From an uncultured Planctomycetia bacterium (GTDB lineage Bacteria; Omnitrophota; Gorgyraeia; Duberdicusellales; 4484-171), in assembly GCA_964536865.1 (NCBI GenBank), contig CAZHYN010000001.1:150001-182000 (forward strand): 32,000 nucleotides of DNA, given 5' to 3'. Below the pieces are notes generated by a model. The model did not search any database. It was given only the letters and a program-made list of their open reading frames with translations, and was not told the DNA's origin. Made by a program: the position numbers and the translations under genes. Positions 1 through 9,335 of this stretch are shown here, piece by piece; the stretch's first letter is position 1, and every line of letters begins with the position of its first letter.

Positions 1-18
1 AATAATGTACATTTTAAA

Positions 19-38
19 TAGACGGACTGGTCAGTCTA
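19..38. promoter_or_regulatory. Imperfect 20-bp palindrome, candidate TetR operator
   Basis: TAGACGGACTGGTCAGTCTA pairs at 8 of 10 positions as an inverted repeat. It ends on the A of the ATG at 38. The upstream promoter lies outside the window, so the context is incomplete. Confidence 0.3.
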
Positions 39-670
39 TGAAAAGAAGAGAAAGAAACGAAAATCTTATCAAAAAAAGAAAGAGCGAGATTCTTGACGCT
101 GCCGAAATTCTATTTTCTAAATATGGCTTTGCCAAAACCACAACAGATAAAATTATGGAGCTTGCTAAATTAGGAAAAGGAACTATCTATCGCTATTTTA
201 AAAATAAAAAAGATATATTTTTTGCTGTTGTGGATAGAGGTTTAGATAGATTAAAAGAGGAGATGCTTAAAAATACAGAAAAAATTGATGATGTATTAAA
301 AAGGATAGAGGTAGCCGTAAAAACTTATCTAAGTTTTTTTGAAAAGAACGCAAATTTGGTGAATATCTTATTACATGAGCAGGCAGGTTTTCAGGAAAGG
401 ATTGCAAAAAAATATTTAGAGCACTATCACGGTAATATAGAAAGAGTTAAAGCAACTTTTAAAAAGGGAATCTCTCAAAAATTAATAAAAAATATAGATA
501 TAGAGACGACAATCGGTGTTCTTACAAGTATATTAAATGGGCTTATTTACAGATGGAAGATTGAAGGAAAAAGATTTAGGTTAACACAAAAAACCCTTCT
601 TATTTTAAAGATTTTCTTTACAGGAATTGTCAGGGACAAAAAAAGAAGAAGAGAATATGAAAATTTATAA
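38..670 (+). CDS. TetR/AcrR family transcriptional regulator, likely repressor of the downstream efflux operon
   Basis: The N-terminal HTH signature ILDAAEILFSKYGFAKTTTDKIMELAKLGKGTIYRYFKNKKDIFFAV is typical of TetR. The ORF is open from 5, but the ATG at 38 (MKRRERNENLIKKRKSEIL...) gives the usual short arm before the HTH. It sits directly upstream of the OMF-MFP-RND genes. Confidence 0.85.
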   Translation: MKRRERNENLIKKRKSEILDAAEILFSKYGFAKTTTDKIMELAKLGKGTIYRYFKNKKDIFFAVVDRGLDRLKEEMLKNTEKIDDVLKRIEVAVKTYLSFFEKNANLVNILLHEQAGFQERIAKKYLEHYHGNIERVKATFKKGISQKLIKNIDIETTIGVLTSILNGLIYRWKIEGKRFRLTQKTLLILKIFFTGIVRDKKRRREYENL

Positions 671-1958
671 ATTATTTCTTTTATTCTTTAGTTTTCTTTT
701 TGCTTTTACAGGATTTTCTCAAGACAAAGAAAAAATTTTAGTTTTAGATGAGAAAAAAGCAGTAAAGATTGCATTAAAAAGAAACTGGGATATTTTAATT
801 AAGGATGAAAAGTTAAAAGAAGCTTATGCTCAACTTTTAAAGGTATGGAGTAGAGTTTTTCCTCAAATTTCCTCTTTTTGTACTTATCAAAGATATAATG
901 ACCATCCTTTTATAAACTATCCTGATAATAAAGGTTATGGATTTAGTGTTGATCAGGTAATTTTTAATGCTCAAGTTTTTAATGCTATAAAAGCGGCTCA
1001 TCCCTTCTTAAATTCAGTAAAAGAAGAAAGAAGTGAACAATTTAATGCTGTAACTTTTGAGGTCAAAAAAGCCTTTCTTTATTCTTTAATTGCCCAAGAG
1101 AGTTTAGAAGTTACTCAAAATGCTCTAAATCTTGCACGTAAGTATTTAAAGACAACAAAGATACGTTTTGAAAATGGAGAAGCTTCAGATTATGATGTTT
1201 TAAGAGCAGAGGTTGAAGTTAAAAATTTAGAGTATAAATTTTTGAAAGCAAAATCAGTTTATAAGACTTCTTTAAATTATTTAAAGCTTTTGTTGGGAAT
1301 TAATCCTCAGGAGAAACTTAAGATAAAAGGTGAGGTAGAATTTAAAAGATTCAGGAAAGACTTTGCTTCTTTGGTTAAATCTGCTTTAGGTAGAAGATCA
1401 TTGATTAAAGCAATAGAATTTAAAGAAGAGTCTTTAAAACACAATTTAAGTGCAGTAAAATCTGAATTTTTTCCTTCTTTGGCATTGAACTTTCAAGATA
1501 TGGCTAATGAGAAAGAAACATTTGCTTTTAATAGAGAAAAATACCAAGATTACTGGATACTTACTTTAAGATTGAATTTTCCTATTTTTGAGGGAGGATT
1601 AAGATTTTTTAAGGTTAAAGAGGCAAAATCGCAACTAAAACAGATTAAGTTATTAAAAGAGAAAACAATTTCTGGTATAAAAATTGAAATAAAGAACGCT
1701 CTTTTTAATTTAGAAAGTACAAAAAAAGAAGTTGAGGCTACACAAAGCAATGTAAAAGATGCAAAAAGAATGTATGAGATTATTTATAAAAGGTATCTTG
1801 AAGGAGAAGCATCTTACTTGGATATTTTAGATGCAAGAAATACACTTTTAGCTTCTCAATTAAATAACTTGCAGGCACTTTTTGATTATAATTTATCTTT
1901 ACTTAAATTGAGGTATCTTACAGGAGAGAATTTAGAAAAAGAGGAGGGTAATTTATGA
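657..1958 (+). CDS. TolC-family outer membrane efflux protein (OMF)
   Basis: The ORF is open from 627. The ATG at 657 gives a classical signal peptide, MKIYKLFLLFFSFLFAFTGFSQ. The roughly 430-aa helix-rich protein is the first gene of an RND operon, and its stop overlaps the next start (ATGA at 1955-1958). Confidence 0.8.
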   Translation: MKIYKLFLLFFSFLFAFTGFSQDKEKILVLDEKKAVKIALKRNWDILIKDEKLKEAYAQLLKVWSRVFPQISSFCTYQRYNDHPFINYPDNKGYGFSVDQVIFNAQVFNAIKAAHPFLNSVKEERSEQFNAVTFEVKKAFLYSLIAQESLEVTQNALNLARKYLKTTKIRFENGEASDYDVLRAEVEVKNLEYKFLKAKSVYKTSLNYLKLLLGINPQEKLKIKGEVEFKRFRKDFASLVKSALGRRSLIKAIEFKEESLKHNLSAVKSEFFPSLALNFQDMANEKETFAFNREKYQDYWILTLRLNFPIFEGGLRFFKVKEAKSQLKQIKLLKEKTISGIKIEIKNALFNLESTKKEVEATQSNVKDAKRMYEIIYKRYLEGEASYLDILDARNTLLASQLNNLQALFDYNLSLLKLRYLTGENLEKEEGNL

Positions 1959-2854
1959 GAAGATTATTTTTCTATCTTTTTTTGATAGTTTTTATTTTAA
2001 ATGGATGCGCAAAAAAGGAAGTAGAAAAGAAAATAAAGGAAATTCCTGTGGAAGTAGCTAAAGTAGAGACCAAAAAAATAAAAGAGATTTTAAAATTTAC
2101 CGGAACAATAAAAGGAAAAGAACAAGTTCAGGTCTTTCCCAAAGTAGGAGGAAAATTAATTAAATATTTGGTTGAAGAAGGTGATTATGTAAAAAAGGAC
2201 GATGTGATTGCTTTAATTGATAGAGATATAACTGGTTTTGAATACAAATCTCACAAAGTCTTATCTCCAATCTCAGGTAAAGTTTTAAAAGCAGATTTAG
2301 ATAAAGGGAGTCTGCTAAATCCTGAAATCCCTGTTGCTATAGTTGCTGATACCTCATCCGTAAAAATAAAAATAGATGTTTCTGAAGTAGATTATCCCAA
2401 ACTAAAAATAGGAAATAAAGCTATTATTAAAGTAGATGCTTATCCTGATAAAGAATTTGAAGGAAGATTAACTAAATTAGATAAATACATTGACTCCTAC
2501 ACAAGAACAGCGGAAGCAGAAATTGAGGCACCTAACAAAGAAGGTTTACTTATCCCAGGAAGCTTTGCCAGAATTACTCTTTTTGTGGGAACACATAAAG
2601 CTTTAACGATGCCTTTAGATGCTCTGTTAAGGATGCCTGGCACAGGCAGTTACTATTGTTTTAAAGTTGAAAATGATAAGGCAAAAAAAACTTTCTTAAA
2701 AATTGGAGTTATTCAGGATAATCTGGTGGAGATTAAAGAGGGTTTAAAAGAGGGTGATTTAGTAATTGTCTCAGGACAAGGGGCATTAGAGGAAGGCACT
2801 CCTGTTAAACCAATTTCTGCCTCAGGGGTGGAAATGGAGGTAGGAAAGAGATGA
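1955..2854 (+). CDS. RND efflux periplasmic adaptor (membrane fusion protein, HlyD family), lipoprotein
   Basis: It has a lipobox-type N-terminus, LFLIVFILNGC. The beta-barrel/lipoyl-like segments (VKKDDVIALID, ISGKV) are typical of MFPs. It is translationally coupled to the RND gene by ATGA at 2851-2854. Confidence 0.85.
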   Translation: MRRLFFYLFLIVFILNGCAKKEVEKKIKEIPVEVAKVETKKIKEILKFTGTIKGKEQVQVFPKVGGKLIKYLVEEGDYVKKDDVIALIDRDITGFEYKSHKVLSPISGKVLKADLDKGSLLNPEIPVAIVADTSSVKIKIDVSEVDYPKLKIGNKAIIKVDAYPDKEFEGRLTKLDKYIDSYTRTAEAEIEAPNKEGLLIPGSFARITLFVGTHKALTMPLDALLRMPGTGSYYCFKVENDKAKKTFLKIGVIQDNLVEIKEGLKEGDLVIVSGQGALEEGTPVKPISASGVEMEVGKR

Positions 2855-5800
2855 ATTTGCCTCAATTTGCTGTAAGGCGACCTTACACAGTTTTAATGAT
2901 ATTTCTGGCAATCTTTCTTATAGGCATTGTCTCTATATTTAAATTAAGAATTGACCTTTTACCAGAAATTGAACCTCCTGTAATTTCAGTTTTAGTTCCC
3001 TATCCAGGAGCTTCAGCTTCAGATGTGGAATCAGATGTAGTCAAATACTTAGAAGATAAACTTTCTACAGTTCCCAATTTAGATGAACTAAATTCTTTAG
3101 CAAAAGATAATTTAGGAATGGTTTCCTGCAAATTTAAGTGGGGCACAAACTTAGATGTTGCCTCAAACGATATAAGAGACAAACTGGATTTAGCCAAATG
3201 GGATATAAAAGAACATGCTCCTGATGCAGAAGAACCGATTTTGTTTAAGTTTTCCTCAGCCACTGCTCCCATTATGGCAATTACAATTTCGGCACCTTCT
3301 TCCTGGCCCCAGCTTTACAGGATAGTAGATAAAAAGGTTGCCGATAGCTTAAAAAGGACAAAAGGTGTGGGAGCAGTAATGATTTATGGAGGACTTCGCC
3401 GTCAGATAAAGGTAGAGTTAGATTGGCAAAAAATAAAAGCTTATAATATCCCTCTTTCTTTGATTATTCAGAGATTAAGAGAAGAAAACCTTGATTTTCC
3501 TTTAGGAAAAATAAAAAAAGGAAAGCGTGATTATTTTTTAAGAATAAAGAAGCGTTTTAAAAATCCACAAGAAATAAAAAATATCTTGATTACTCAATAT
3601 AAAGAGAAACCTGTTTATTTAAAAGATATAGCCAAGGTAAGTGATGATTTTGAAGAGGACAAAATGAAAGGATATTGTAATGGCAAGAAGGCAATTATTT
3701 TAATTGTTCAGAAGCAGTCAGGCAAAAATACAGTTGAAGTCTGCAACAACATTAAAAAGACATTAAAAAAAGTTAAAAAGTTTCTACCTAAAGATGCAGA
3801 AATCACCATCCCTATGGATTCTTCAGAATTTATTCTTATGGCAATAAAAAATTTAGCCAAAACTGTAGTTACTGCTGGAATTTTGGTAGTTATTGTCACT
3901 CTGCTTTTTTTAAGAAGACTGAGAGCATCTTTAATAATCTCTTTAACTATCCCTTTTTCTTTAATCTGTGCTTTTATCTTCTTATTCTTAGGTGGTTTTA
4001 CAATCAATGTTATGTCCTTGATGAGTTTAGCAATTGCTATTGGAATGGTGGTGGATAATGCCATTGTTGTTTTAGAAAATATTACCCGCCATATTGAGGA
4101 AGACCAAAAACCACATGAGGCATCTGTTTTTGCATCTGGTGAGGTAGGAGGAGCTATCTTTGCCTCAACCTTAACTACAATTTGTGTATTTGTTCCTTTA
4201 ATTTTTGTAACGGGACTGGCAGGTATTATGTTCAAGCAATTAGGAGCAGTTGTCTCAATTACTATTTTTTCTTCTCTTTTTGTAGCCTTAACTTTAACTC
4301 CGATGTTAGCTTCCAAATGGATTAAAAAAGAAACATATACTGAGAAAAATAAACTTTCTAAATTTTATCTTTTGGGAGAAAAGTTTTTTAAAAATATCGA
4401 AGCTTTTTATGTAAAGATTTTAGATTATGCACTTTCTCATAAAAAGAAAATTTTAACTTCTCTTATAATAATATTTTTTGTAAGTATTTTTTTAGCTCGT
4501 TTTATCGGTCAGGATTTATTCCCTGATGTAGATACAGGAGATATAGATATAATGTTCAGATTGAATGAATCAGCAAGGATTGAGGAAACAGATAAGATTT
4601 TAAAAAAGATTGGAAAGATTTATGAAGAGTTGGTTCCAGAAAGAAAATCCTATTATGCTTTTGCTGGTGAATCTGAGAAAGGGATTGGTGTTGCTTTAGG
4701 GTTTGAGGAAGGTCCAAATGTGGGTGAAGTGGGAGCAAAACTTGTTCCCAGAACTGAAAGAAAAAAAAGGGTTTATGAGATTGCTGATATTTTGCGAAAA
4801 AAGATTGAAAAAATTGCTGGTATTGAAAAATTAAAAGTAATTGCTACCACTCCTATAAAACAGATGCTTATGGCAGGTAAAGGGAAGATTGAGGTGGAAT
4901 TGATAGGTTCAGATTTAGATAAACTGCAAAAGTATGCAGAAAAATTGGAAAAAGAGATGAAAAAAATTCCTGGAGTAGTAGATGTAAGAAGTTCATTTAA
5001 AAGACCAAGATTAGAATTACATATAGATATCGATAGAGAAAAAGCAAATCTTTTAGGAGTAAATACAGCTATTTTAGCATCTGGTTTGCGAACTTATTTT
5101 TACGGGTATGAGGCTACAAAGTTCAGAGAAGCAGGAGATGATTTTGATATATTTTTGCAGTTAAAGGAAAAACAACGGTACAGTCTGGATGATTTAGGAG
5201 AGATTCCTGTGCCTACAATGAGTGGTAAACTTGTTAAGTTAAAGACTTTTGCTAAGGTTAATATGGGGTTAGGGCCTGTAGAGATTAAGCGTAAAAACAG
5301 GGAGAGAATTATAAGTGTAGGGTGCGATACTTATAAAAGAGCAATGAGTGATATTAAAAAAGATATTGAGAAGGTAATAAAAAAGTTAAATATACCTAAG
5401 GATATTGGGGTAAATTTTGGAGGACAGGTTGAGGAACAAAAGAAAGCTTTTGGTGATTTAGGTGTTTTATTGTTGATAGGAATGATTTTAGTTTATATGG
5501 TAATGGTTGGACAATTTGAGTCCTTAAAGACTCCTTTCATAATCTATTTTTCTGTTCCTTTTGCCTTTGTAGGAGTAATCTGGACACTTCTTCTGACAGG
5601 AACTCATTTTTCTATAGTAACATTTATGGCAGTTATTATGCTTGTAGGTGTTGTAGTAAATAACGCTATAGTTTTGGTTGATTATACAAATATTTTAAGG
5701 GCAAGGGGACTAAATTTATTTGAGGCAATAAAGCTTGCTGGAAGGCACAGGCTTCGCCCTGTTTTAATGACTTCTTTCACCACAATTTTTGGTATGCTTC

Positions 5801-5940
5801 CTTTGGCTTTAGGAAGGGGACAGGGAGGAGAAATCTGGCAGGCATTTGGGATTACACCTATTGGAGGGCTTCTTTTATCAAGTTTAGTTACCTTAGTTTT
5901 AGTTCCTATAATCTATTCAATTTTCCATAAAGAAAAATAA
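2851..5940 (+). CDS. RND efflux transporter permease (AcrB/CzcA superfamily)
   Basis: The 1029-aa protein has a 12-TM pseudo-repeat architecture with two large periplasmic loops. The conserved TM4/TM10 motifs VDNAIVVLENI and VVNNAIVLVDY are present. Confidence 0.95.
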   Translation: MNLPQFAVRRPYTVLMIFLAIFLIGIVSIFKLRIDLLPEIEPPVISVLVPYPGASASDVESDVVKYLEDKLSTVPNLDELNSLAKDNLGMVSCKFKWGTNLDVASNDIRDKLDLAKWDIKEHAPDAEEPILFKFSSATAPIMAITISAPSSWPQLYRIVDKKVADSLKRTKGVGAVMIYGGLRRQIKVELDWQKIKAYNIPLSLIIQRLREENLDFPLGKIKKGKRDYFLRIKKRFKNPQEIKNILITQYKEKPVYLKDIAKVSDDFEEDKMKGYCNGKKAIILIVQKQSGKNTVEVCNNIKKTLKKVKKFLPKDAEITIPMDSSEFILMAIKNLAKTVVTAGILVVIVTLLFLRRLRASLIISLTIPFSLICAFIFLFLGGFTINVMSLMSLAIAIGMVVDNAIVVLENITRHIEEDQKPHEASVFASGEVGGAIFASTLTTICVFVPLIFVTGLAGIMFKQLGAVVSITIFSSLFVALTLTPMLASKWIKKETYTEKNKLSKFYLLGEKFFKNIEAFYVKILDYALSHKKKILTSLIIIFFVSIFLARFIGQDLFPDVDTGDIDIMFRLNESARIEETDKILKKIGKIYEELVPERKSYYAFAGESEKGIGVALGFEEGPNVGEVGAKLVPRTERKKRVYEIADILRKKIEKIAGIEKLKVIATTPIKQMLMAGKGKIEVELIGSDLDKLQKYAEKLEKEMKKIPGVVDVRSSFKRPRLELHIDIDREKANLLGVNTAILASGLRTYFYGYEATKFREAGDDFDIFLQLKEKQRYSLDDLGEIPVPTMSGKLVKLKTFAKVNMGLGPVEIKRKNRERIISVGCDTYKRAMSDIKKDIEKVIKKLNIPKDIGVNFGGQVEEQKKAFGDLGVLLLIGMILVYMVMVGQFESLKTPFIIYFSVPFAFVGVIWTLLLTGTHFSIVTFMAVIMLVGVVVNNAIVLVDYTNILRARGLNLFEAIKLAGRHRLRPVLMTSFTTIFGMLPLALGRGQGGEIWQAFGITPIGGLLLSSLVTLVLVPIIYSIFHKEK

Positions 5941-6860
5941 TGTTTTATGATTATTCTTTTAAAAAAGAATACAGAAAAAAGCTTTTAAAGGAGAACAAAA
6001 GATTTAAAGAATACATAATAGAATTTGAAAGTCCTTTTAAAAAATATCCTGATAAAGCTTGTGGTTTCTTATTTCTTCCTCATCAATTAAAAACAAAAAA
6101 AGCTTTAATCTTTCTTCATGGCTCAGGTAGTTATCACTTTGGCTTCTTTAAAAATTTTTCCTTACTCTTTTCCCAAAAAGGCATTCCTACATTTTTCATA
6201 ATTTTACCCTTCCATTATCTGCGAAAAAAAGAAAAGAACAATTTTTTCAGTGATAATCTATTTGAAATTTTTGATAGTTTCCGTCAGGCAGTAATTGATA
6301 CAAGGGCTTCTCTTGACTGTTTAGAAAAAGAAGGTTTCTTAGAAGATTTTTCTATTTTGGGGATAAGTTTGGGAGGTATGATTGCTACCATTGTATCTGC
6401 AGTTGATGAAAGAATTAAAAAAGCAATTTTGATAAATACAGGTGGAGGATTTTTTTATATTGTCTGGGAAAGTCTTTTGCCTTTTTTAAGAAAAAATTAT
6501 AAAAGAACCCATCATCTTTATGGGTGTAATAAGGAAAGGTGTCAGAAGATTTACAGTTTTCATAAAGAATTTGTCAAAGAATTAAAAGATATAAGTTTAC
6601 TGGGAAAAATTAAACCTGAAAAAGAGTGTTTTTTATTTGACCCTTTAAGTTTTTGCCATCTTTTAAAAGAAAAAGTAAAAGTAATCCTTTTCTTTTCTTC
6701 GTTTGATGAGATAATCCCTAAAAAAGCACAGAAGATTTTTGAAGAAGCCTTAGGATATCCACCTAAATACACTCTTTCTGGCGACCATTTTTTATCCTTA
6801 ATTTTAAACAAGAAAAAAATCATAAATATTTCTTCCCAATTTTTGTTGAATGATAATTAA
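5940..6860 (+). CDS. Alpha/beta-fold hydrolase (Ser-Asp-His), translationally coupled to the RND pump
   Basis: It has an HG oxyanion motif (IFLHGSGS) and a nucleophile elbow (GISLGG). Candidate catalytic Asp (SFDEIIP) and His (SGDHF) are present. Its start overlaps the RND stop (TAATG at 5938-5942). Confidence 0.7.
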   Translation: MFYDYSFKKEYRKKLLKENKRFKEYIIEFESPFKKYPDKACGFLFLPHQLKTKKALIFLHGSGSYHFGFFKNFSLLFSQKGIPTFFIILPFHYLRKKEKNNFFSDNLFEIFDSFRQAVIDTRASLDCLEKEGFLEDFSILGISLGGMIATIVSAVDERIKKAILINTGGGFFYIVWESLLPFLRKNYKRTHHLYGCNKERCQKIYSFHKEFVKELKDISLLGKIKPEKECFLFDPLSFCHLLKEKVKVILFFSSFDEIIPKKAQKIFEEALGYPPKYTLSGDHFLSLILNKKKIINISSQFLLNDN

Positions 6861-6912
6861 AAACCATATTTTTGCCCCTGGGGTGGAAATGGTAGAAAAG
6901 TAGGAGGGAAAA

Positions 6913-7203
6913 ATGAAATTGGTGATTATCTGTTATAACATTGCTATTGGTGAGGAGGTATTAGAGGTTTTAGAAGAGTTAGAAATTAAAAGTTATACAA
7001 GGTTTAAAGAGGCACAAGGAGTGGGTAGATTAAGTGGACCTCATTTAGGTAATCATATCTGGCCAGCAATAAATTCAGTTTTGATGGTAGCTTTAGATGA
7101 GGATAAAAAAGATGAACTTATTGAGAAAATAAAAGAATTGCGAAAAAAATTAGGAAAAGAAGGTATAAAAGCATTTGTTTTACCAGTTGAGGAAATTACA
7201 TAA
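6913..7203 (+). CDS. Small PII-like / transporter-associated protein (96 aa)
   Basis: A good SD (GGAGGG) precedes the start. The pattern MKLVIICYN...EEVLEVLEELEIKSYTRF...GVG suggests a beta-alpha-beta, PII/CutA-like fold. From memory it resembles the small PG0541-type proteins encoded at the end of OMF-MFP-RND operons. This is unverified. Confidence 0.45.
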   Translation: MKLVIICYNIAIGEEVLEVLEELEIKSYTRFKEAQGVGRLSGPHLGNHIWPAINSVLMVALDEDKKDELIEKIKELRKKLGKEGIKAFVLPVEEIT

Positions 7204-7224: not shown

Positions 7225-7252
7225 TTGACATTTTGATAGAGAGTGTTATTAT
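7225..7252 (+). promoter_or_regulatory. Sigma70-type promoter for marR and the radical SAM gene, with an overlapping inverted repeat
   Basis: The promoter reads TTGACA (7225-7230), 16 nt spacer, TATTAT (7247-7252). The inverted repeat TTGATA (7233-7238) / TATCAA (7250-7255) spans the spacer and the -10 box. Confidence 0.55.
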
Positions 7253-7290
7253 CAATAAAATAGTTAGGTATACGAAGTATTTTTTTAAAA

Positions 7291-7758
7291 ATGAGGAAGA
7301 AAAAAGAATTATATAATTATATTTTCCGCCTGGATAATCTGCTTCCTGTTTTAATTAAACATTTTCAAATTCCTCAACCACATAAATTACTTGGAATTAA
7401 AATTACTCTTCAGCAGTATCTTGCCTTAAATATGTTAATCAAAAAAGGCAGGTGCATGGTTTCGGATTTAAGTAAAAATTTAGGCGTTGCTTTAAGCACA
7501 ATGACAGAATTGGTTGATCGCTTGGCAAAAAAGCAATTTGTTAAAAAGATTAAGGATTTAAAAGATCGTCGTATAGTATGGATTAATCTGACTGAAAAAG
7601 GAACAAAGATTATCCAAGAGATAAATAGGAAAAAGCAGAAATATATCTTAAATGTTCTTGAAAAATTAACAGAAAAGGAAAGAAAGCTTTTAATTGATAT
7701 ACTGGAGAGAATCTCCCAGGTTGCTAAAAGAATAGAGATGAAGGGTATGAGGATTTAA
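7291..7758 (+). CDS. MarR family transcriptional regulator
   Basis: The winged-helix core LQQYLALNMLIKKGRCMVSDLSKNLGVALSTMTELVDRLAKKQFVKKIKDLKDRRIVWINLTEKG is typical of MarR. Confidence 0.85.
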   Translation: MRKKKELYNYIFRLDNLLPVLIKHFQIPQPHKLLGIKITLQQYLALNMLIKKGRCMVSDLSKNLGVALSTMTELVDRLAKKQFVKKIKDLKDRRIVWINLTEKGTKIIQEINRKKQKYILNVLEKLTEKERKLLIDILERISQVAKRIEMKGMRI

Positions 7759-7784
7759 CTTATTCTTTCAGGAAAGGAGGCAGG

Positions 7785-9206
7785 ATGAATTTTAAAGAGA
7801 AGATAGAAAGAGAAATAATAAAAAATATTTTAAAAATGCTTCCTCGTATGTCAGAGAAAAATTTAATAAGAGCTACTTATCTGGTGGAGAAACTTCCTCA
7901 AGATGAAGGAATAAGAAAAGCAGTAAAAATTGTAAGAGAATATTTTGAAAAAGGGCACCCTTCTGTGAAACTGGCAAAAAGAATCTGGGGTGAGCTACAT
8001 CCCAACTGCTTAAACAAACTTGTGGAGAATTTCTTTATCAATGCCTGTTTTATTTCTGACAGAATAAGAAGAGAGATTGAGGAAAAAGAAGGTTTTCATA
8101 TCCCCTGGTTTTTTGTTATCTCTCCTACAATGAAATGTAACCTGCATTGCCGGGGCTGTTCTGTAGAAAGTTATAAAAAAGATGAGGATTTGCCAAAAGA
8201 GATATGGGATAGAATATTAGATGAAGCACAATCCTTGGGAATCTATTTTATCACTGTTCAGGGAGGAGAGACATTTGTAAGAAAAGATATGTTAGATATT
8301 TATGCCTCACATCCAGATATGTATTTTCAGGTTTATTCTAACGGGACTTTAATTGATAAAAAAATGGCAGAAAGACTGCAGGAGTTGGGAAATGTTGAGA
8401 TAAATTTATCTGTGGAAGGATTTGAGAAAGAGACAGATTCAAGAAGAGGAAAAGGTGTATGGCGTAAGGTAATGGAGGCAATGGACAATTTAAGAGAGGC
8501 AGGGGTGATGTTTGGTTTCTCTGTCACCCAGACCCGTTATAATACTGATATAATTACTTCTGATGAGTTTTTTAAGCTAATGGTAGAGAAAGGTTGCTAT
8601 ATTGGATGGTTTTTCCACTATATCCCTTTAGGAAAAGACCCGGATTTAGGTTTGGTGCCTCTGCCATCTCAGAGAAATAAGTTAAGAGAAAAGTTAAAAG
8701 AGGTAAGAGAAACCCTTCCTTTATTTGTGGGAGATTTCTGGAATGATGGTCCTTTTGTTCAGGGATGTATTGCTGGAGCTCGTCAGTATTGTCATATAAA
8801 TCATAGAGGAGATGTTGAGGCTTGCGCATTTTGCCATTTTGCTGTGGATAATATAAAAAGTGGTAAAAGTCTAAAAGAGATTTTCAACTCCCCATTTTTT
8901 AAAGAGATGCGCGAAAGAATTCAGTGGGAAGAGGCCTCCTGCCCCTACAGTGATAATCTTTTAACTCCTTGCCAGATAATTGACCAGCCTTGGGTTTTAA
9001 GAGAACTGGTAGAGAAACACAACGCTTACTCTACCGATGGAGCAGGTGATGTTTTATTAAAAGGAAAAGCAGCAAGGTTTTTAGATGAATACAGCAGGCA
9101 AATCCATGCTCTTTATGATAAAATCTGGGAGGAAGACTCTTATTATAAAGAAATAAGAGAAAATATAAGAGAGAAAAGAAAAAGACTTTTTGCTAAGGTA
9201 GAATAA
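7785..9206 (+). CDS. Radical SAM enzyme (473 aa) with an N-terminal helical extension and a Cys-rich C-terminal auxiliary-cluster domain; substrate unknown
   Basis: It carries a CX3CX2C motif (CNLHCRGC), a GGE motif (VQGGETF), and further core strands (VYSNGTLID, INLSVEG). The C-terminal cysteines GCIAGARQYCHINHRGDVEACAFCHF...SCPYS...PCQ resemble a SPASM/twitch domain. A strong SD (AAGGAGG) precedes the start. Confidence 0.85.
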   Translation: MNFKEKIEREIIKNILKMLPRMSEKNLIRATYLVEKLPQDEGIRKAVKIVREYFEKGHPSVKLAKRIWGELHPNCLNKLVENFFINACFISDRIRREIEEKEGFHIPWFFVISPTMKCNLHCRGCSVESYKKDEDLPKEIWDRILDEAQSLGIYFITVQGGETFVRKDMLDIYASHPDMYFQVYSNGTLIDKKMAERLQELGNVEINLSVEGFEKETDSRRGKGVWRKVMEAMDNLREAGVMFGFSVTQTRYNTDIITSDEFFKLMVEKGCYIGWFFHYIPLGKDPDLGLVPLPSQRNKLREKLKEVRETLPLFVGDFWNDGPFVQGCIAGARQYCHINHRGDVEACAFCHFAVDNIKSGKSLKEIFNSPFFKEMRERIQWEEASCPYSDNLLTPCQIIDQPWVLRELVEKHNAYSTDGAGDVLLKGKAARFLDEYSRQIHALYDKIWEEDSYYKEIRENIREKRKRLFAKVE

Positions 9207-9335
9207 AAAAATAAATTTAGGCAAGATATTTTTAAAAGTTGTCTGTCTGCCCCACAAAACAAGAAGAAATTTTGCCTGATTTATAAGGAAATCAGACAAA
9301 AGTAGTACACTAATATGTCAAGAGGAGGTGAATTT

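Follow-up and report, generated by a model that had tools for sequence, protein, structure and literature searches.

The window, a stretch of 32,000 nucleotides from contig CAZHYN010000001.1 of an uncultured bacterium placed by GTDB in the Omnitrophota, carries a gene encoding an enzyme of the radical S-adenosylmethionine (SAM) type that is preceded by a regulator gene and followed by a run of lipid-related genes (Table 1). Here we propose that the product of this gene probably belongs to the large bacterial family exemplified by Mss, the synthase of membrane-spanning lipids. A sequence-only reading of the region had described a 473-residue enzyme with a canonical CX3CX2C motif, an N-terminal helical extension of approximately 110 residues and no B12 domain, followed by genes for phasin-like, ABC1 kinase, patatin, major facilitator superfamily (MFS) and thioesterase proteins, and all of these features were recovered. 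Pfam and NCBIfam identify the five downstream genes in that order, and the gaps from the enzyme gene to the thioesterase gene are 108, 17, 1, −4 and 14 bp, gene by gene, all on the same strand. The thioesterase also matches TIGR00369 (79 bits, cut-off 36.6), whilst the phasin-like protein scores 38.2 bits against Pfam Phasin and 28.6 bits, under its cut-off, against BMFP. We read the clustering of the enzyme with phasin/UbiK-like, UbiB, patatin, MFS and thioesterase genes as a lipid-remodelling set.

Table 1. Positions of the enzyme gene, its neighbours and related genes in this and other genomes
Feature	Coordinates	Strand	Remarks
Promoter-like site (predicted), TTGACA-16-TATTAT, ahead of marR	7225..7252	+	Top match of the region, 11/12
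MarR-family winged-helix regulator, 155 aa	7291..7758	+	First gene of the unit; Pfam MarR 48.8 bits (cut-off 24.6)
Radical SAM / twitch-like SPASM enzyme (P0001), 473 aa; probable Mss-type	7785..9206	+	Open reading frame without interruption
Inverted repeat, 13-bp stem	9270..9301		In the 108-bp gap between enzyme and phasin-like genes
Phasin-related / UbiK(BMFP)-like small helical protein, 105 aa	9315..9632	+	NCBIfam NF047773 59 bits (cut-off 35)
ABC1/UbiB atypical kinase, 555 aa	9650..11317	+	Pfam ABC1 281.9 bits
Patatin-like phospholipase, 328 aa	11319..12305	+	Pfam Patatin 121 bits
MFS transporter, 394 aa	12302..13486	+	Start overlaps patatin stop by 4 bp; Pfam MFS_1 116 bits
Hotdog-fold (4HBT/PaaI-type) thioesterase, 129 aa	13501..13890	+	Pfam 4HBT 54 bits
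Upstream set: TetR, outer-membrane factor, membrane-fusion protein, resistance-nodulation-division (RND) pump, alpha/beta hydrolase, PG0541-family protein	5..7203	+	
Second intact paralogue, 481 aa	G000:C3:1741-3776 (L087)	-	47% identity to the window protein
Third family copy, 103-codon in-frame internal-deletion remnant	G000:C5 (L090:3249-3560)	-	
190-aa membrane protein, example	L035:9380-9952		Homologue in the window genome at L090:2683-3252
Plasmid family member, E. albertii pEA5_1, NZ_CP117576.1	L088:2254-3633		
Plasmid family member, K. pneumoniae pFF1023_1, NZ_CP077819.1	L089:7037-8338		

The radical SAM motif of the enzyme reads C118-N-L-H-C122-R-G-C125. Pfam assigns it Radical_SAM (81.5 bits) and SPASM (26.5 bits, cut-off 21.5) domains and no B12 domain. 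All NCBIfam models score far below their cut-offs, the top one being NirJ2 with 109 bits against 500. An AlphaFold2 model, built with 19 diverse relatives as input, has a predicted local distance difference test score (pLDDT) of 88 and a predicted template modelling score of 0.90. It shows five N-terminal helices at residues 3-102 and no beta strands ahead of residue 109, followed by the radical SAM barrel and, at the C-terminus, an auxiliary domain. In an alignment with 19 diverse family members the enzyme is collinear from the N-terminal helices through to the C-terminus. The six further C-terminal cysteines of the sequence-only reading are all present beyond residue 300 (328, 336, 347, 350, 386 and 396), but those at 336, 350 and 386 are not conserved among 551 full-length relatives and one cluster site is left. 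In these members six cysteines are at least 99% conserved, namely 118, 122, 125, 328, 347 and 396. Because only these six are conserved, a single auxiliary Fe-S cluster, held on C328, C347 and C396, should be expected family-wide. The start motif of SPASM and twitch domains, CX9-15GX4C, is present as C328 ... G342-x4-C347 and is invariant in the alignment of 19, whilst neither a CX2CX5CX3C block nor the full seven-cysteine SPASM set has a conserved counterpart in the 551 members. As the block is missing and just three auxiliary cysteines are conserved, we describe the auxiliary domain as twitch-like.

A homologue search returned more than 2,700 full-length relatives with 45-60% identity over 95% of their length, and at E <= 1e-30 the family comprises 764 clusters at 50% identity. 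Relatives were found in Omnitrophota, Patescibacteria, Woese-, Pace- and Nanoarchaeota, Helarchaeota, Atribacterota, Synergistota and Armatimonadota, as well as in Nitrospirae, Bacteroidales, Dictyoglomaceae, Bacillota, Thermotogales (Thermosipho) and the PVC group. Within the Omnitrophota, 6 of 150 other genomes sampled carry the family. Homologue searches started from P0001 and from one member each of the Dictyoglomaceae and the Bacillota returned almost exclusively metagenome proteins. The named sources in the clusters looked up were Atribacterota isolates and one Thermosipho metagenome-assembled genome, and a search of the ESM Atlas returned generic radical SAM clusters only.

Mss activity has been proven for Tmari_0825 of T. 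maritima and WP_129545148.1 of T. ethanolicus (Sahonero-Canavesi et al. 2022, PMC13159169), whose authors define homologues by E <= 1e-50 and at least 30% identity to either protein. They report homologues in Firmicutes, Thermotogae, Synergistetes, Armatimonadetes, Nitrospirae and Dictyoglomi, in Atribacterota, the FCB and PVC groups, gamma- and deltaproteobacteria and candidate phyla and, unexpectedly, in DPANN and Asgard archaea. Every Thermotogales genome they examined has an mss homologue, their alignment of diabolic-acid-type synthases takes in two Thermosipho species, and the Thermotogales and Dictyoglomus enzymes grouped together (PMC13159169). Moreover, of 267 Omnitrophota metagenome-assembled genomes (MAGs) in a survey of the Black Sea, 15 contained Mss homologues (PMC11868695). 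The phyletic list of relatives of the window enzyme, which takes in IncF plasmid copies of Escherichia albertii and Klebsiella pneumoniae, matches that published for Mss homologues; this is consistent with Mss membership and no proof of it. As a proxy for the proven Mss we used P0501 (MBO8139841.1), a protein of Thermosipho sp. and the representative of a 50% cluster, which was picked for its thermophile-like composition. It shares 37% identity with the window protein over 451 residues (E 4e-100), the alignment spanning residues 4-453 of the latter and keeping all six conserved cysteines, and 43-46% identity with a Dictyoglomaceae/Hydrothermae branch. An Mss-type enzyme had been one suggestion of the sequence-only reading, and the phyletic spread, the Thermosipho match and the recurring lipid neighbours described below support it indirectly; it is the best reading of the data. 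Most likely, then, the enzyme would use radical chemistry to couple the acyl tails of ester glycerolipids made by the cell itself, or to modify those tails in a related way.

The plasmid-borne members, annotated just as 'radical SAM protein', lie beside IS66 elements, and the IncF plasmids that carry them come from wildlife Enterobacteriaceae. Their identity is 33% with the window protein and 46-48% with that of Thermosipho, and a megablast search of 5,426 complete E. coli genomes gave no match to an enterobacterial plasmid copy.

The other suggestion, that the enzyme is an archaeal Tes/GDGT-MAS, is not supported. The model NF045702, whose cut-off of 450 is passed by three archaeal control genomes, gives the window gene 24.9 bits, and no Tes was found in the window genome, where the top match to the model is 60.4 bits. 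A profile of the family matches the structure of GDGT-MAS (PDB 7TOL) in the generic radical SAM core only (E 3.5e-6), behind SkfB (E 2e-16), SuiB, PqqE and anSME. The fold search places SkfB (Z 26.5), SuiB (Z 25.1) and anSME (Z 24.5) ahead of GDGT-MAS, which ranks 30th (Z 17.9) with a generic match covering approximately 250 of 498 chain residues. Tes also has cysteine ligands for two more [4Fe-4S] clusters and for a site of the rubredoxin type, whereas the 551 members conserve just three extra cysteines.

Gene contexts were taken from the best 80 loci of a scan of genome contigs for the family enzyme, among which Thermotoga and Thermoanaerobacter do not figure. The lipid-gene neighbourhood on which the sequence-only reading had leaned is conserved in part. 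Only L001, the closest public relative, repeats the exact gene run; it is an Omnitrophota MAG from the Guaymas Basin, and its enzyme is 96% identical to that of the window. A patatin gene is found directly upstream of the enzyme gene at five loci of the nearest clade (L004, L008, L009, L012 and L035), and the association with phasin-like and UbiB genes reappears in a Bacillota MAG (L039) in the order winged-helix regulator, phasin-like protein, UbiB, family enzyme. The phasin-like protein of L039 is 27% identical to that of the window (E 7e-13). Searches with phmmer and with a hidden Markov model of three members, run against 1,550 small open reading frames (ORFs) near the 80 loci, found such partners in L001 and L039 only; therefore the pairing is uncommon in this sample. 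Other neighbours of the family include DagK, LapA-domain proteins, LpxL-type acyltransferases, PagL, PanC/PanD and B12 radical SAM enzymes, and no single conserved operon partner emerged from the 120 neighbours at these loci. In eight loci (L017:7843-9255 and seven others) a B12-binding radical SAM gene, encoding a protein of approximately 470-490 aa, is no more than a few kb away from a family member.

In the nearest clade a polytopic membrane protein of approximately 190 aa is encoded 3′ of the enzyme gene in eight loci and 5′ of it in one, L006. It matches no Pfam or NCBIfam family and no PDB profile. Its model (pLDDT 85) resembles only two PDB folds with Z of at least 8, CdsA (4q2e, Z 10.2 over 168 residues) and CarS (5guf, Z 8.3). 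CdsA is the CDP-diacylglycerol synthase and CarS the CDP-archaeol synthase. Judging from this modelled fold, the protein may be an undescribed CTP-dependent lipid enzyme. At L006 (L006:1-6002), which comes from an Omnitrophota MAG, genes for an RND pump, a PG0541-family protein, the 190-aa protein and the enzyme lie close together in a row on one strand. This enzyme is just 56% identical to that of the window, and the RND/PG0541 (P-II-like) set lies upstream as it does in the window.

The marR gene is separated from the enzyme gene by 26 bp on the same strand, and its product has a counterpart of 84% identity in the same place in L001. Position 7225 is the −35 box of the predicted promoter-like site, both hexamers of which are kept in L001 although the sequence 5′ of them diverges. 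From this adjacency MarR may control the enzyme gene. A 6-bp inverted repeat, TTGATA/TATCAA, lies over the −10 box; because it is not conserved in L001 we do not call it a MarR operator. The repeat downstream of the enzyme gene is listed as terminator-like on the minus strand, and no T-tract follows it on the plus strand. At this spot, where the window has just the short gap, L001 carries an inserted gene for a PagL-like lipid A 3-O-deacylase (L001:2208-2828), a 41% identical copy of which is encoded elsewhere in the window genome (contig C2).

The window genome is a 1.29-Mb assembly, 94% complete, and holds two intact family members and one remnant. The ATG of the second intact copy overlaps the stop codon of plsY in a string ribD-plsY-enzyme-nitroreductase-mazG, and at 44% identity this copy stands nearer to the Thermosipho protein than does that of the window. 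The remnant is flanked by a patatin gene and a CdsA-like gene, the enzyme's place in relatives. Its residues 1-30 resemble the family N-terminus and its residues 30-103 resemble residues 385-458 of P0044 (58%, E 1e-27). With a MarR gene and one promoter-like site in front of it, the window copy would be the regulated one of the two intact paralogues. The genome further encodes three ketoacyl synthases, PlsY, one PlsC-type acyltransferase and two patatins, the UbiB of the window is its single copy, and no Ger/PlsA domain was found in it. At least six radical SAM genes lie elsewhere in this genome within 14 kb (G000:C15:27000-41000), beside a sugar aminotransferase gene; among them are weak Tes-model matches and one SPASM match. 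Tandem family paralogues occur in other genomes, at L018:6576-9374 and L056:6448-9350 (a Pacearchaeota MAG and an unclassified bacterial MAG, respectively), and in the family tree the longest branch belongs to one member of the L056 pair.

Taking Mss and Tes as analogues, we can sketch how the enzyme might act. The CX3CX2C cluster would split SAM to give a 5′-deoxyadenosyl radical, which would take a hydrogen atom from an acyl tail of a membrane glycerolipid, at the tail's terminal or sub-terminal carbon. An auxiliary [4Fe-4S] cluster on C328, C347 and C396, with an open site because only three conserved cysteines hold it, could hold or relay this first radical until a second tail has been activated by a second SAM. 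Joining of both tails would then yield a long, membrane-spanning dicarboxylic chain of the diabolic-acid type. Since the genome provides its own fatty acids and ester glycerolipids and lacks Ger/PlsA, a tetraester-type lipid is therefore expected rather than an ether lipid. In this account the architecture, family, conserved cysteines and gene contexts are observed; the substrate, the product, the regulation and what the neighbouring genes do are inferred.

Several observations weigh against an Mss assignment. Membership is read from the proxy and the phyletic spread rather than from Tmari_0825 and WP_129545148.1 themselves. Down to approximately 55% identity, no cultured Dictyoglomus proteins were found among the relatives of the Dictyoglomaceae MAG member, and the proven Mss may therefore occupy a distant branch. 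Of the two paralogues, that of the window has diverged further, at 37% identity to the Thermosipho protein against 44% for the plsY-linked copy. The nearest solved folds are those of the peptide maturases SkfB, SuiB and anSME, a universal gene partner is missing from the 80 loci surveyed, and the literature searched reports activity for Thermotoga and Thermoanaerobacter members only. The divergence of the window copy also feeds an unlikely alternative, in which the plsY-linked paralogue is the true Mss and the window enzyme acts on membrane lipid tails by another radical reaction, for example a Gms-like cross-link in a lipid that already spans the membrane, a C-C bond in mid-chain, or else cyclisation or desaturation. 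The two intact paralogues are just 47% identical, the related MAGs L003, L005 and L007 also carry two, tandem pairs exist in L018 and L056, and bacterial Gms homologues cluster with mss (PMC11214058). However, all six conserved cysteines and the whole architecture are common to both paralogues, and the Gms-bearing genera Thermococcus, Pyrococcus and Archaeoglobus are not among the best 80 genome matches.

The structural matches raise the question of whether the enzyme is instead a SPASM/twitch maturase of ribosomally synthesised peptides or of proteins, akin to SkfB, SuiB or anSME. These are the top PDB matches by both profile and fold, and many weak NCBIfam matches are to peptide maturases, yet we consider this explanation most improbable. 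The maturase matches in NCBIfam are all far under their curated cut-offs, and the modelled N-terminal domain is all-helical. The full SPASM cysteine set is absent from the family. Furthermore, no conserved small ORF and no protease or exporter partner was found among the 120 putative operon partners at the 80 loci, a survey in which ORFs below 70 aa were considered only within 2.5 kb and for phasin-like proteins, and those below 50 aa were excluded. It is also very unlikely that the enzyme serves cofactor synthesis, either in a heme pathway like AhbD and NirJ or, with its UbiB and UbiK-like neighbours, in isoprenoid quinone synthesis. NirJ2 and AhbD (87 bits) are its top NCBIfam matches, and the neighbours do resemble the UbiK/UbiB accessory pair of ubiquinone synthesis. 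Both scores are nevertheless far under the cut-off of 500, the window contains no heme genes, and a search for UbiA-family prenyltransferases was negative in the genome, which is 94% complete, whereas it was positive in 14 of 14 control genomes. Moreover, it is glycerolipid and envelope genes that adjoin family members elsewhere.

A bolder proposal, rather unlikely as it stands, is that the window copy is no plain Mss but the catalyst within a regulated module for membrane remodelling. In such a module the UbiK/phasin-like protein and the genome's sole UbiB-type kinase would extract lipid tails or present them to the radical enzyme, and the patatin, thioesterase and MFS transporter would recycle by-products. 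The core of regulator, phasin-like protein, UbiB and enzyme is common to one Omnitrophota and one Bacillota MAG. If true, this would give the UbiB-family proteins of quinone-less bacteria a concrete lipid role. Irrespective of the module, phasin/UbiK-like protein and UbiB are a candidate helper pair that recurs with the enzyme in another phylum.

The membrane-spanning lipids of bacteria, among them the precursors of the branched glycerol dialkyl glycerol tetraethers used as palaeoclimate markers, have been proposed to come from Mss-type enzymes, and the family is little studied, with two members tested and the mechanism unstudied. A single auxiliary site of three cysteines fits the cluster-adduct coupling mechanism that has been proposed for Tes and postulated for Mss. 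In addition, the plsY-coupled copy, the MarR-linked copy and the deleted third copy within one small genome form a natural set for comparing the products of paralogues. The Mss-type family itself is known; the paralogue set, the three-cysteine auxiliary site and the link to phasin-like and UbiB proteins are modest additions, and unless tested the locus leaves the known picture unchanged.

Compared with known systems, the window enzyme shares with SkfB, SuiB and anSME its closest solved-structure matches (Z 24-26.5) and the CX9-15GX4C start of the auxiliary domain. It differs from them in sequence (17-22% identity), in a helical N-terminal domain that stands in place of the peptide-recognition element, in one three-cysteine site in place of the seven-cysteine set of SPASM maturases, and in that no peptide partner was found for it. 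Gms, the archaeal glycerol monoalkyl glycerol tetraether synthase (T. guaymasensis WP_062369926.1; PMC11214058), resembles it by description, the sequences themselves not having been compared: it is of SPASM/twitch type, forms C-C bonds in lipids and has no rubredoxin domain, and its bacterial homologues are reported next to mss. Unlike the window enzyme, Gms is reported to have two auxiliary clusters (PMC13459092), and its substrate is an existing tetraether. With Tes (MJ0619, MA_1486; PDB 7TOL/7TOM) the enzyme has in common a radical SAM core, a similar size, an N-terminal extension and a presumed sp3-sp3 coupling of tails via an auxiliary cluster. Tes in contrast has two extra clusters plus a rubredoxin-type site, and uses isoprenoid ether lipids where ester lipids are expected for the window enzyme.

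From Mss the window copy differs in its place in a diverged, Omnitrophota-centred clade and in its link to MarR and to phasin/UbiK-like, UbiB and patatin genes, a context not found in the literature searched. Its genome moreover lacks Ger, and hence ether lipids are not expected. Nonetheless, like Mss it is a stand-alone radical SAM enzyme of anaerobes that has no fixed operon partner, and its family too extends through candidate phyla, DPANN and Asgard archaea, the PVC group and Gammaproteobacteria. It also shares with Mss a predicted auxiliary Fe-S site, which a 2026 review postulated for that enzyme (PMC13459092).

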